NCBI GenBank assembly: GCA_964353875.1
Contig: CAYGXU010000007.1
Location: 1 to 57,416, forward strand
Reading direction: 5' to 3'
Source: an uncultured Anaerolineaceae bacterium
GTDB lineage: Bacteria; Chloroflexota; Anaerolineae; Anaerolineales; E44-bin32
Length of the DNA stretch: 57,416 nucleotides
Of the stretch, positions 49,327 through 57,416 are shown piece by piece. The notes below the pieces were generated by a model. That model had not been told where the DNA came from. It did not search any database and saw nothing but the letters and a program-made list of their open reading frames with translations. The position numbers and the translations under genes are program-made. Numbering within the stretch: position 1 is the first letter of the stretch; each line of letters begins with the position of its first letter.

Positions 49327-49428
49327 CTATAATAAAGGCTCCCAGAAGGCTGCATAATGGCCTGCCGATAAGCTGCGGACGCCGCAGGTGACCGTCATCT
49401 TCATCGGCTTGTTATACGGCGATAGCAA

Positions 49429-49824
49429 CTATTGTGAATTTTCTCGTAAGGGAACAAGCCCCTCGTTCGTCTCAACAAGCAGTTCAACTCCTGTGCCAAG
49501 CAAAACTCCAACAAGATCTTTGTAGTTAGCTTCGTTTACCATATCCTGCGAAGCCACAAATGCCTTCAAGACCTCGAGCAATTTGCTCCCATAGCGAATC
49601 ACTAGTGTTATACCCTCCTCATCATTTTTTCGCAGAATGTGGGCGCGAATATTCTTTTCATCCACGTGGCACTCGAGGGAAAGACGCATAGTCTGGTTGT
49701 AATAGTCCAACGTCAAATCTCCAAAGCCGGAAATTTGGACGTTTGAAATACCACGCAACACTGCCATCGGATCTTTCCATCCGACGAGAGTCTCCTTTAT
49801 GATATCCTCATCGTTATTTCCCAT
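49429..49824 (-). CDS. Hypothetical protein, no recognisable family
   Basis: 131-aa ORF, AT-rich. It is the first cassette downstream of repeat copy A. Confidence 0.55.
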   Translation of the reverse strand: MGNNDEDIIKETLVGWKDPMAVLRGISNVQISGFGDLTLDYYNQTMRLSLECHVDEKNIRAHILRKNDEEGITLVIRYGSKLLEVLKAFVASQDMVNEANYKDLVGVLLGTGVELLVETNEGLVPLRENSQ

Positions 49825-49952
49825 TGTTATCCATTTCTAAATATAGATTCATCGCCGATAACAACAAATAGTCCTTATATCTTCGGCTTCTCCCTGCACT
49901 CAGGGATAAGTTCTCGCGGTTCTAACTCGGTCGCTTCGTAATGAAAAGGTCC

Positions 49953-50200
49953 AGGCGGAGGGAGATTGCAGCGATGTATTCGACGAGCCACCTCCGATTC
50001 GCGAACCTGCGTCTATTTTAGCCGGAAAGCAATGGCATGCAAATTGATATTATCTAATGGCTTGTCGAAGGAAATCGTAGCCGAGCCTGTCCTGAGCTTG
50101 TTGAAGGGATGGCAGCACCTTCCTGGATCGAATGCCCATGGGCATCGAGCCCGAATATTAAATGCAATAAGAGTGTGCATGGAAGTGAGGGGGAGGGATC
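49953..50200. repeat. Island intergenic element, copy A
   Basis: Colinear conserved blocks shared with copies B and C (see findings). No conserved reading frame. Boundaries are approximate. Confidence 0.75.
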
Positions 50201-50371
50201 AGGCCAGAGATGTTACATAAGGGAGTTCACTAAGTTGATAACTAGCAATTCGGTTTTTCTCATGGACACTGCCGCGCGTGTTAGAACCCTGAATTGATTT
50301 TGGCGCTGTAACCCGCAACTGCTCCGACGATTGATTAACCATCATCCGAGGAAGTTGATCCGAGTTGACTG

Positions 50372-53965: not shown

Positions 53966-54109
53966 AATGATGGGGTTGGAAAGGTTACAGCAGGAAGATC
54001 GCTCAATGAACCTTATGCAATTCAGGCCTCCTGATGGAAGCGGCCTGTTTTGTGATGCCGCGGGCAGCATAAGCGACCGTCGGCTTGATCCGCTTGTCGG
54101 GCGCCCCCA

Positions 54110-57100
54110 TCAAGCAACCGCCCATTCTGCTGAGAGCACCTCCGCCTGCTCCAGCACCGTCTGCGTCGCCTTCTCCTGCTTGTCGGGAGGGTAGCCGTGT
54201 TTGCGCAGGATGCGCTTGACGATGACGCGGAGGTTGGCTCTCACGTTTTCACGGATCGTCCAGTCGATCGTAACGTTCGACCGGACCGCTGCGACCAGCT
54301 CTCGGGCAATCATGCGCAGGGTTTCGTCTCCAAGGACCTTGACGGCGCTGTCGTTGGTCTCGAGGGCATCATAGAAGGCGAGTTCGTCGTCGGTCAGGCC
54401 AAGCTGCTCGCCGCGTGCATCGGCCAAGCGCATATCCTTGGCCAACGCGATTAACTCTTCGATCACCTGGGCGGCTTCGATCGCTCGATTCTGATAGCGC
54501 CGGATGACCTGTTCCAGCATCTCAGCGAAAGAACGAGCCTGCACAACATTCTTCCGCCGCCGCGCCTGGATCTCGCCTGCCAGCAGCTTCCGCAGAAGTT
54601 CCACGGCCAGGTTGCGCTGCGGCATGCCGCGCACTTCGGCCAGGAACTCGTCCGACAAGATCGAAATATCCGGTTTCTCCAAGCCGGCGGCGGCGAAGAT
54701 GTCGACCACCTCGTCCGAAACCACGGCTCGGGAGACAATCTGCCGGACGGCAAGATCGAGCTCTTCATCCTCCCTGACTCTGTCTGGGTCGCCCTTGAGC
54801 AGGCGAGCCCTCACCGCCTGAAAGAAGCCAACATCGTCCCGGATCCGAAGCGCCTCTGAGTGCGGGACGGATAAGGCGAAAGCCCGCGAGAGCTCGAGCA
54901 CGGCTTGCATGAGCCTCTCCTTGCCGTCTTCCTGGGCCAGGATGTGTTCCTGTGCAGCCGGGAACAGTCTCAAGCGCTCTTCGGGAGATCCTTTGATCCA
55001 GCGTGAATGGTCGAAACCGTGGAACAAGCCGGAGCAGACCTCATACTTCTCCAATAGGAAGGCAACCGCCTCTTCCTGGTCGATGGCGGTCTTGCCGGTG
55101 CCGCCGCTCTCGGTGTAGGTGTGGAGGGCCTGTTTCAGCTCGTGCGCCAGACCCAGGTAGTCAACGACCAAGCCGCCGGGCTTGTCCCGGAACACTCGAT
55201 TGACCCGGGCGATGGCCTGCATCAGGCCATGACCGCGCATCGGCTTATCAACGTACATCGTATGCAGCGAAGGGGCGTCGAAGCCGGTGAGCCACATATC
55301 CCGTACGATGACCAGGTTGAAGGGATCGCTTGGGTCACGGAAGCGGTGAGCGAGCACGTCCCGGCGCTGCTTGTTGCGGATGTGCGGCTGCCAGTCGACC
55401 GGATCCGATGCCGACCCCGTCATGACCACCTTGAGGTTCCCTTTTTCGTCATCTTCATCGACCCAATCCGGCCGAAGGGCGGCGATCCTGCGGCAGAGTT
55501 CAACGCAGATGCGCCGGCTCATGCAGACGATCATGCCCTTTCCTTCAAGGGTTTCAAGCCTGGCCTCGAAATGGGCAACAATGTCCTGCGCCACGAGATC
55601 CAGCCGTCTGTCAGCGCCAACGACCGCCTCGATCTGAGCCCATTTTGTCTTGAGCTCCTCTTTGCGTTCGACCTCCTCGCCCTCCGTGACTTCTTCGAAG
55701 TCGGGGTCGATCCTCGGCCGCTCGGCCTCATCGAGCTCGAGCTTCGCCAGGCGGCCCTCGTAGTAGATCGGGACCGTGGCCTTGTCTTCGACTGCCCGCT
55801 GGATGTCGTAGATGCTGATGTAGTCCCCGAAGACTGCTCGCGTATTGGCATCGGCCTTCTCGATTGGGGTTCCGGTGAAAGCGATAAAGGAGGCATTCGG
55901 CAGCGCATCGCGCATGTGACGGGCGAAGCCGTCGATGAAGTCGTACTGGCTGCGGTGCGCCTCGTCGGCGATCACGACGATGTTTTGTCGCTCCGACAGG
56001 ACCGGATGTTGGTCGCCTTTCTCCTCAGGGAAGAACTTCTGGATGGTCGTGAATACCACACCGCCGGCCTCGACGCTCAGCTTCCGGCGCAGGTCGGCGC
56101 GGCTCTCGGCCTGTACAGGGGGTTGGCGAAGCAGGTCCTGGCACAACGAGAACATGCCGAAGAGCTGGCCGTCCAGGTCGTTGCGATCGGTGAGCACGAC
56201 GATCGTCGGATTGGCCATCGCCGGCTCGCGGATCAACCGTCCGGCGTAGAACGCCATCGTCAGGCTCTTGCCTGAGCCCTGTGTGTGCCAGACCACGCCG
56301 ACACGCCGGTCTCCCGGCTTCCCGCCAGGCCGGCGCCCGGCCTCGTACCTTCCGCGTAGCTCCCCGGTGACACGCTCCGAAGACGATTTGGCGGCGCGCA
56401 GCGTTTCCTCGATCGCCACGCGGACGGCGTGAAATTGATGGTAGCCGGCGATCTTCTTTGCCATGGCGCCGGTCCCAGGGTCTTCGAAGACGATGAAATC
56501 ACGGACCAGTTGCAGCAATCGATGTTTTTCAAAGACACCCTCGATCAGCACCTGCAACTCCGGTTGGAGGGCGTCGGCCAGAACCTCGCCGGAGACGGTC
56601 CGCCAGGGCTTGAACCACTCCCGCCCTGCCGTCAGGCTGCCCAGGCGTGCTTCGACGCCGTCTGATACGACTAGGATCTCATTGAAGGTGAGGAACGAGG
56701 GGATCTCAGCCTTGTAGGTCTGCAACTGCTGAAACGCGGTCCAGATGGTCGCCTGCTCGTAGGCCGGATTCTTCAATTCAATGACCACAAGCGGCAGGCC
56801 GTTGACGAACAAGACGATGTCCGGCCGGCGGGTGTGGTGGTCTTCGCTGACAGTGAATTGGTTGACCGCCAGCCAGTCGTTGTTCTCCGGCTCATCAAAG
56901 TCAAGGACCTGAACCTGCGCGCCGGCGATCGTCCCGTCGGGGCGTCTGTGCTCAACCGTGACGCCGTCGATGAGCATGCGATGGAAGGCGCGATTGCGCG
57001 CCTCGACCGTCGGACCTTCGGGATGTATCAACCTGCGGAAGCCATCCTCGAGCGCCTCGGCCGGTAGCTGCGGATTGAGCGCAGCCAGCGCGCGGCGAAG

Positions 57101-57250
57101 ACAAGCTTCAAGGATCACCTGATCGTAGCCAGTGCGCTCAGGGCGAGCAGCATCATAGGCGATCTCCGGCCCGTGCTTGATGGCGAAGCCCAGGCGCAGC
57201 AGCCAGTCGAGCGTGGCTTGTTCAACGACGGATTCGGTCAGGCCAGCCAT
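54110..57250 (-). CDS. hsdR: Type I restriction enzyme R subunit
   Basis: 1046 aa. It has an N-terminal PD-(D/E)xK ([19 protein letters not shown]), helicase motif I TQGSGKS, motif II DEAH (IADEAHRSQ), and a C-terminal region typical of HsdR. Strong GGAGG RBS. Confidence 0.95.
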
Positions 57251-57414
57251 GCATCCTCCGCTTCTGGGGCGGTTGTCGAAGGATTCTCCCTATCCATAGC
57301 CCATCGTGCGGGATTATCTAGGATATATTGTCGTATGCGCTGAAGAGAGTTTTCGTTTCGTATGATGTGTTCGAAATAATTGCGTTGCCAGACAGATACG
57401 CCAGGGGTATTGCG
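57238..57414 (-). CDS. 3' end of a REP-associated tyrosine (Y1, IS200-like) transposase gene; the 5' part lies outside the window
   Basis: My own translation is ...[38 protein letters not shown]...AWLA*. The WQRNY(F/Y)EHIIRNE...YI..NP..W block is the characteristic RAYT C-terminus. Confidence 0.7.
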
Positions 57415-57416
57415 GT

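Follow-up and report, generated by a model that had tools for sequence, protein, structure and literature searches.

Insertion sequences (IS) of the IS1111 group (e.g., ISEc11, ISKpn4 and ISPa11; Siddiquee et al. 2024, PMC11187229) carry a long non-coding region (NCR) downstream of a transposase gene with DEDD and Transposase_20 domains, together with subterminal inverted repeats, and this combination is the published signature of the group. The NCR encodes a seekRNA that selects the target, and cargo placed between IS1111 ends can be moved when transposase and seekRNA are supplied in trans (PMC11187229). Modules of the IS110 family that lack a transposase have also been described, with ISPpu9 and ssr9/MITEPpu9 in Pseudomonas putida KT2440 (Pares-Guillen et al. 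2025, PMC12288879). Here, a repeat of about 410 nucleotides (nt) in a defence island of an uncultured Anaerolineaceae bacterium is compared with these systems. The window analysed is the entire 57,416-nt contig C7 (CAYGXU010000007.1) of a metagenome-assembled genome (MAG; GCA_964353875.1; 229 contigs, 3.50 Mb, 92% completeness, 4% contamination), which stops inside a type I restriction-modification (R-M) module. The three copies of the repeat, referred to as IG1, IG2 and IG3 (Table 1), are 407-422 nt long and occupy all three spacers between the modules of the island. To judge by its homologies, the repeat is a degenerate, transposase-less remnant of an IS1111-type IS, consisting of the NCR (the seekRNA-type region) and the right end. 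The identity of this spacer repeat is what is new; the locus as a whole illustrates island mosaicism well and shows no new mechanism.

In the account preferred here, to which a probability of roughly 0.6 is assigned, the last approximately 13 kb of the contig would be a mosaic island built from modules with separate histories of horizontal transfer, namely a metabolic block of high G+C content, an R-M pair of the SacI type with low G+C content, a near-orphan methyltransferase gene with very low G+C content and the tail of a type I R-M system with very high G+C content. The repeat in the three spacers would descend from one transposase-less, IS1111-like derivative that kept the NCR and the right end. 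Its copies would be old and decayed as mobile DNA, and would probably have been kept since an extension of about 170 nt that is private to them, together with an adjoining block, now acts as promoter or leader for the gene downstream. The locus links the defence island of an uncultured bacterium to RNA-guided IS1111-like elements that are widespread in its relatives, and it may illustrate the fate of such elements once the transposase is lost, with non-coding ends kept as spacers, and perhaps as promoters, between acquired genes.

In whole-genome nhmmer searches IG1 and IG3 found each other at E values of about 1e-25, and IG2 matched both of them at 1e-3 to 1e-6; global identity among the three copies is only 48-57%, and no further copy was found in the whole 3.5-Mb assembly. 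IG1 and IG3 match the NCR of an IS in a congener (genome G001) at E values of 2.9e-22 and 6.2e-21, respectively. The alignment runs through to the right end of the IS (...TCATGGAAG), where IG1 reads tcatggaca as compared with the consensus TCATGGAAG. The right inverted repeat of IG3, AGGCCTCCTGATGGAAG, is recognisable against the GGCCTTCTCATGGAAG of the IS, and the right end of IG2, TTGACAAgtgaaGCGTTTCTTAAAT, can be recognised by eye only. The right flank of IG3 (CGGCC(TG)) and the flank of IG1 (CTGCCGCGCG) resemble CKGCCCGGC, the target of one subgroup of the IS.

Searching the relatives with IG1 yielded matches to a repetitive extragenic palindromic (REP) unit and, in several genera, genuine homologues of the element. 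The homologue mostly lies directly downstream of an open reading frame (ORF), which at one locus (L036) is intact and encodes a protein of 358 amino acids (aa) with the Pfam domains DEDD_Tnp_IS110 and Transposase_20. The intact IS has a length of about 1.6 kb and is composed of a left arm of 113 nt, which begins with ATTGGAATGAGAAGGCCGG directly after the junction AG, the transposase gene, and an NCR of about 310-330 nt which ends, at the right junction, with GGCCTTCTCATGGAAG. Its ends form the subterminal inverted repeats ATGAGAAGGCC and GGCCTTCTCAT, and AG is found at both junctions of the intact relatives. The IS family is present in 20 of the 98 genomes of the taxonomic family, distributed over 12 of its 24 genera. 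At a further locus (L157, G081:C142, positions 400-1672) a copy of the NCR stands beside a different transposase gene of the IS110 family, in opposite orientation; the encoded protein is 26% identical to that of L036.

An alignment of 20 copies revealed an 11-nt guide segment of the NCR that is the reverse complement of the last 2 bases of the element and the next 9 bases of the flank. Guide and right flank covary (AACAACT with TTGTTAG, AACGTCT with ACGTTAG, GGGCCGCT with CGGCCCGG, and TTTGTGTCT with ACACAAAG); the guides match their right flanks at 7.15 of 9 positions on average, whereas re-paired guides and flanks match at 4.69 +/- 0.33 positions, and none of 5000 permutations reached as high a value. 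A second guide segment, which directly precedes ATGGCAGC, corresponds to the left flank and covaries with it in like manner (CAGCGAG, CACAAAG, AGCTGAG and AGCTCAG). RNAalifold places both guide segments in a single internal loop closed by CTGC/GCAG, and a long hairpin with compensatory changes adjoins this loop. As this covariation shows, the intact relatives are RNA-guided elements in which a loop of the non-coding RNA specifies the DNA to the left and to the right of the insertion point. With the IS1111 group they share the 358-aa transposase carrying both domains, the long downstream NCR, the subterminal inverted repeats, the AG at the junctions and the two RNA segments that match the target (PMC11187229).

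The right end of the IS lies 4-60 nt past the stop codon of a convergent gene in most loci, and the region of the stop codon, or a hairpin past it, seems to be part of the target. Given this landing habit, it is understandable that a gene 3' end adjoins each copy in the window: the right ends are found past the convergent stop codons of hsdR (IG3, 69 nt), the gene for an S-adenosylmethionine (SAM)-dependent methyltransferase (IG2, 15 nt) and the endonuclease gene (IG1, 103 nt). Because the IS family targets gene 3' ends, the presence of copies in every spacer need not be causal, and insertion alone suffices as an explanation. The relatives thus combine a clear covariation of guide and target with landing sites just past the stop codons of toxin-antitoxin and defence genes. 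Members of the IS family were seen repeatedly after toxin-antitoxin genes (loci L136, L145, L160, L032, L034 and L158); these genes encode three PIN/VapC-like C-termini (...FEG..VRYV..., a C-terminal motif by which the label was given), MazF, a helix-turn-helix (HTH)/Phd-type antitoxin and a RelE-like toxin.

The copies in the window share with the IS1111 group the homology to NCR and right end, but they have no transposase, no left end and no match between guide and target, and they bear the private extension, which makes them relics or derivatives instead of insertion sequences. No ORF for a DEDD (RuvC-like) transposase with the C-terminal domain PF02371 occurs in the window, PF01548 is absent from the whole assembly, and a tblastn search of the assembly with the L036 transposase returned nothing but a 27-aa stub on contig C89. 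The left inverted repeat ATGAGAAGGCC was not found in the window with a pattern scan and two left-end profiles; at the start of the shared sequence only AG/ATTGG or AG/ATTC (junction at the slash) remains, which resembles the left terminus of the IS. A guide matching the flanks was not detected in the window, the longest match between element and junction being 5-7 nt. By inspection, IG1 has lost the inner stem of the hairpin that is conserved in the IS, IG2 is barely alignable, and the RNA stems are broken in both copies. Two fragments of the same IS family were observed elsewhere in the genome, i.e., the left arm with the first 27 transposase codons at C89:10180-10367, located at a step in G+C content from 0.53 to 0.63-0.70, and a right-end fragment at C115:3043-3111.

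In a maximum-likelihood tree the three copies of the window stand together beyond a 93/94 branch, the nearest IS copy being that of the congener G001. Their terminal branches measure 0.76-2.4 substitutions per site (2.4 for IG2), compared with a median of 0.16. The extension of about 170 nt on the transposase-proximal side is common to the three copies and occurs in no IS copy; being shared and private, it points to descent from a single transposase-less ancestor and argues against three separate decays. The length of 407-422 nt is close to that of the left arm (113 nt) and the NCR (about 310-330 nt) of the intact IS combined. This total length and the start at AG/ATT suggest that the copies could be a deletion derivative similar to a miniature inverted-repeat transposable element (MITE), a reading to which the profile searches give no support: a left-end profile search yielded no statistical homology in the window copies, and the copies are not scattered. 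As in MITEPpu9/ssr9, a small-RNA-type module derived from an IS110 element and lacking the transposase gene occurs in several chromosomal copies (PMC12288879). MITEPpu9, however, keeps both end boxes, forms minicircles and is present in near-identical copies scattered in REP sites (PMC12288879), whereas the copies studied here have an undetectable left end, are 48-57% identical and are sited between unrelated genes of one island.

On the gene strand, the best-conserved block of the repeat was read by eye as TTGCAT or TTGTAT, a spacing of 15-17 nt and (T/C)AAAAT; after it comes a stem that compensatory changes have preserved. Block and stem may constitute a promoter and leader for the next gene. 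Several observations weigh against descent from one decayed derivative kept as promoter or leader. The promoter-like block was recognised by eye only, and a generic scan for promoters and terminators showed no enrichment of promoters. The grouping of the three copies in the tree may in part be a long-branch artefact. The three copies are confined to 4.2 kb of a 3.5-Mb assembly, a clustering which would be strange for relics left at random and which hints that some local process linked with the island was involved. Given a cassette with a G+C content at third codon positions (GC3) of 0.31 beside one of 0.78, the copies appear too diverged to have originated in place after arrival of the cargo; they look older than the cargo because, over a time that allows 0.8 substitutions per site, the GC3 of the two cassettes (0.31 and 0.78) would be expected to have drifted toward 0.55. 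The copies would either predate the cargo or have come with it, and the preferred account does not choose between the two. Finally, with an incomplete MAG (92%, 229 contigs) a transposase could be present in the organism and unassembled.

Regarding base composition, the genome has an overall G+C content of 0.509 (1-kb windows with a standard deviation of 0.037 and 0.5th and 99.5th percentiles of 0.42 and 0.61), and genes were ranked within a reference set of 2186 ORFs of at least 200 aa (G+C 0.517 +/- 0.034, GC3 0.547 +/- 0.071). The gene for the SAM-dependent methyltransferase, with a G+C content of 0.369 and a GC3 of 0.311, is the minimum of this set and lies at the 99.9th percentile of codon-usage distance. 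The adjoining hsdR has a G+C content of 0.620 (99.7th percentile) and a GC3 of 0.778 (99.9th percentile), and both genes exceed the 99.6th percentile of codon-usage distance. The claim of the initial annotation that adjoining genes on the same strand differ greatly in composition is therefore true and strong. Its figure of 33-38% G+C for the nuclease, methylase and SAM-dependent methyltransferase genes agrees with the last of these, but is too low for the R-M pair (0.44-0.47): the SacI-family endonuclease gene has a G+C content of 0.438 and a GC3 of 0.383 (under the 1st percentile of ORFs), and the D12 methylase gene, with 0.474 and 0.456, lies at the 9th percentile and is no outlier. The corresponding values for orf131 are 0.449 and 0.492, and the G+C content of the dnaK region is 0.518.

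To test for steps in composition, the two 700-nt flanks of every repeat copy were set against 15,437 window pairs of equal spacing taken across the genome. The step in G+C content at IG3 (0.251) exceeds that of every genome pair (maximum 0.233), and the step at IG2 (0.111) belongs to the top 1.7%, whereas practically none was found at IG1 (0.016); the notion that composition changes at the repeat copies thus applies to two of them and not to the third. A further step of 0.12 (top 1%) is located near 48.0 kb, downstream in coordinates of a block at 44.2-47.7 kb with a G+C content of 0.57-0.60 and a GC3 of 0.67-0.70 (94th-99th percentile of ORFs), the genes of which show codon-usage distances at the 90th-99th percentile. 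Because of this deviant high-GC block (Table 1) the island begins about 5 kb before the position originally given for it. Compositional mosaicism as such is expected, and ordinary, in defence islands.

The independent acquisition of the modules, which the initial annotation had deduced from composition, is well supported by their occurrence elsewhere. The D12 methylase and endonuclease genes overlap by 62 nt and qualify as a SacI-family type II R-M system, with a gene for the endonuclease and one for the DNA methyltransferase. The same pair with the same 62-nt overlap was found in three other contigs (L164, L166 and L168, positions 5103-7092) with unrelated neighbourhoods, as a discrete unit of 2.07 kb with 70-79% nucleotide identity in three foreign contexts. 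Homology to the window extends from 52445, 52399 or 52359 to 50381-50393, i.e., over essentially the two genes, and the module as defined by homology comprises positions 50382-52445. The unit maintains its own G+C content of 0.43-0.47 in loci of 0.50, 0.56 and 0.62. Homologues are plentiful at 69-79% aa identity, some of them from MAGs named Anaerolineae or Chloroflexi; no close relative of the restriction endonuclease was found in the species-representative genomes.

The same homologues bear on the idea that the element and its downstream gene were the transferred unit, each cassette having brought its own diverged copy as a portable promoter or leader. This idea fits the private extension, which stops 22-70 nt before each downstream start codon, as well as the promoter-like block on the gene strand and the stem preserved by compensatory changes, and the deep divergence between the copies would fit separate donors. 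The R-M homologues, however, have no more than 54 nt ahead of the methylase start in common with the window (up to 52445), which falls short of the element, and no copy of the element is present at any of the three homologous contigs. The G+C contents of IG1, IG2 and IG3 (0.49, 0.45 and 0.50) do not track those of the neighbouring genes (0.45, 0.44-0.47 and 0.37), and searches of genome and metagenome contigs with two degenerate patterns gave no real match to another element of the window type. (A pattern match at L171 was due to chance and lay inside a gene for a membrane protein.) Transfer of the repeat together with its downstream gene is accordingly considered unlikely.

The hsdR gene is 84% identical at the nucleotide level in the congener G001 (G001:C173), compared with 72-74% for two core segments. 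It has a G+C content of 0.61-0.64 there and is followed by genes of ordinary composition which are unrelated to those of the window; the homology stops at 54089 in the window and thus does not reach IG3, which begins 49 nt further on in the direction of the repeat. With a higher identity than the core, other neighbours and the same G+C content of 0.63, this gene bears out an independent arrival. More distant relatives of hsdR (72-77% aa identity, mean G+C 0.64) are distributed over more than ten phyla, from groups including Binatia, Acidobacteriota, Gemmatimonadota, Dehalococcoidia, Nitrospirota, Proteobacteria and Planctomycetota. A RAYT-like gene is located directly upstream of hsdR and overlaps its start, as it does in L066 and L070 (a gammaproteobacterial MAG and a Chloroflexota MAG); in L070 the ORF sequences give the order integrase-like gene, hsdM, hsdS, RAYT-like gene and hsdR. 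The RAYT-like gene appears to be a conserved passenger of this type I R-M operon. Since homologous loci have the order hsdM-hsdS-RAYT-hsdR, the hsdR of the window is the tail of a larger module, which is truncated at the contig end, 166 nt upstream of hsdR. The set of HsdR, HsdM and HsdS that defines a type I system was not found, HsdM (PF02384) being absent from the whole assembly; the hsdM and hsdS partners may simply be unassembled.

The SAM-dependent methyltransferase is nearly an orphan. In a word-indexed search of 5.8 billion proteins it found itself alone, 61 matches were obtained among 1.84 billion representative proteins (best identity 49%), and no close relative was found in the species-representative genomes. 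Exact-sequence look-ups of hsdR and of this methyltransferase returned no record.

It is highly improbable that the mosaic is an artefact of a chimeric assembly or of a contaminant binned into the MAG, even though the latter consists of 229 contigs with an estimated contamination of 4% and the steepest step is situated only 3.3 kb from the contig end. The hsdR gene recurs with the same G+C content, and with an identity above that of core genes, in an independently assembled congener, and related copies of the element on both sides of each step tie the segments together; these two observations make an assembly chimera unlikely. Copies of 48-57% identity are, furthermore, not similar enough for an assembler to confuse them. 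The names of the closest R-M homologues are Anaerolineae or Chloroflexi, and related IS remnants are found elsewhere in the genome, on C89 and C115.

The initial annotation regarded the locus as a hotspot at which cassettes are inserted or exchanged at the repeat. In such a model the repeat would be a working part of a cassette-exchange system, operated either by an IS1111-type recombinase acting in trans or by RecA on about 410 nt of homology, and the locus would act as an integron-style defence hotspot. The elements do fill all spacers of the island and are found only there, two of the three copies coincide with extreme steps in composition, and modules and elements abut within 15-110 nt. 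Copies which look older than the unameliorated cargo would fit a turnover of modules between fixed sites, mobilisation in trans of cargo flanked by IS1111 ends is known (PMC11187229), and in another genome (G018) a Gabija pair in a low-GC island has a transposase-less copy next to it, with position and orientation relative to the genes as in the window. On the other side, the genome has no transposase of the IS family, the left end was not found and the guides do not fit the flanks, the RNA stems are broken in IG1 and IG2, and an identity of 48-57% is too low for efficient homologous recombination. The R-M module travels without the element elsewhere, a second example of the element type was not encountered in two collections of genome and metagenome contigs, and cassette turnover was not observable, as the relatives are without the locus. 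Exchange at the repeat is therefore distinctly unlikely.

Regarding the recombinase sought near the island, no tyrosine recombinase (PF00589) was found on contig C7 and no IS110-type transposase in the assembly. With the R-M unit moving without the element, no step at IG1 and no match between guide and flank, a role of the repeat as organiser or exchange site did not find support; that the repeat organises a hotspot is unproven and, as the evidence stands, unlikely. Were the copies still substrates of a recombinase supplied in trans, defence islands would be assembled by a novel route, which the evidence makes unlikely. A more specific version, in which the copies would be fixed junctions of an RNA-guided, integron-like system, an IS1111-type recombinase circulating in the population would swap the defence modules by acting on the right ends and guide-RNA regions still present, the element would supply the promoter and G018 would be a second instance, is very unlikely.

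Similarities to pseudo-compound transposons of IS26 and to integron arrays consist in modules of different origin on the same strand, directly oriented copies of an element and little spare DNA. Unlike these, the window contains neither an IS26-type recombinase nor IntI, and nothing marks the copies as recombination substrates today. The locus is not an integron: in addition to the lack of PF00589 on C7, the element of about 410 nt is homologous to the NCR of an IS and is not an imperfect palindrome of the size of attC, as judged by comparison without a formal attC model.

The copy in G018 (locus L033, contig G018:C1) comprises an NCR with the right end (4441-4672) and adjoins the start of the Gabija pair, which is encoded on the minus strand by GajA at 2417-4483 (684 bits) and GajB at 567-2498 (576 bits). 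The locus is part of a low-GC island (0.43-0.47, compared with 0.55-0.59 for the genome), and the guide of this copy still fits its right flank at 8 of 9 positions. A possible left end, TGAGAAGGCC, with the possible left inverted repeat TTTTGAGAAGGCCCGG at 43-58, is located 4.6 kb away. The locus may be a cargo-carrying derivative of the IS with a length of 4.6 kb.

The features of the contig end are compiled in Table 1. All genes from the epimerase to the contig end are encoded on the minus strand. The epimerase had been proposed as an anchor for synteny, but no orthologue was found in 40 relatives (best match with 35% identity), and the island is not present in the congener G001. Neither Pfam nor PADLOC yielded a match for orf131.

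Table 1. Features at the end of contig C7 (positions in the 57,416-nt window).
Feature	Position	Strand	Basis or remark
High-GC metabolic block: GFO/IDH/MocA oxidoreductase, Zn-dependent dehydrogenase, M28 peptidase	44236-47656	-	Pfam
NAD-dependent epimerase/dehydratase, ordinary composition (G+C 0.490)	48376-49326	-	Pfam PF01370
orf131, ORF of 131 aa (G+C 0.449)	49429-49824	-	Start codon 22 nt from IG1
Repeat copy IG1	49847-50268	+ (= RNA sense of parent IS)	nhmmer
SacI-family type II restriction endonuclease	50372-51460	-	Pfam PF09566, PADLOC REase_II
D12-class N6-adenine DNA methyltransferase	51399-52391	-	Pfam PF02086, PADLOC MTase_II
Repeat copy IG2, most diverged	52464-~52869	+	nhmmer, profile match E 2.7e-80
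Class I SAM-dependent methyltransferase-like gene	52885-53607	-	Pfam Methyltransf_11, E 8e-7
Repeat copy IG3, best preserved	53634-54040	+	nhmmer to NCR of the G001 IS
Full-length HsdR	54110-57250	-	Pfam HSDR_N, SWI2_SNF2, T1RH-like_C; PADLOC REase_I, 1118 bits
RAYT/IS200-like Y1 transposase-like gene, C-terminal end, cut by contig end	57238-57416	-	Translation

Other identities of the repeat were considered and rejected. It is not a REP element, since the REP-like unit at 50083-50108 is a 26-nt unit within IG1 and not the whole element. No Rfam family matched the window or six related loci at the gathering score or at an E value of 5 or less, and neither a tRNA nor a transfer-messenger RNA (tmRNA) was detected, although GTTCGATCC...GCTGCCA at first seemed tRNA-like. 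A small protein gene was rejected by inspection: the plus-strand ORFs 49966-50220 and 53642-53929 share blocks at the nucleotide level only, and a second frame is interrupted by a stop codon in IG3. A fourth copy suspected near 48205 proved to be merely a match of 33 nt with 76% identity, which is not significant.

Regarding the REP-type unit itself (GAGCCTGTCCTGAGCTTGTCGAAGGG, 26 nt), many copies per genome were found across the order (loci L004-L031), which is why IG1 yields many short matches in relatives. The unit occupies an equal place in IG1 and in the IS copy of G001, just before ATGGCAGC in the guide loop. Outside the island, a T-box leader (Rfam RF00230, 97.9 bits) was observed at 22691-22981 on the plus strand, upstream of the gene at 23030-24064.

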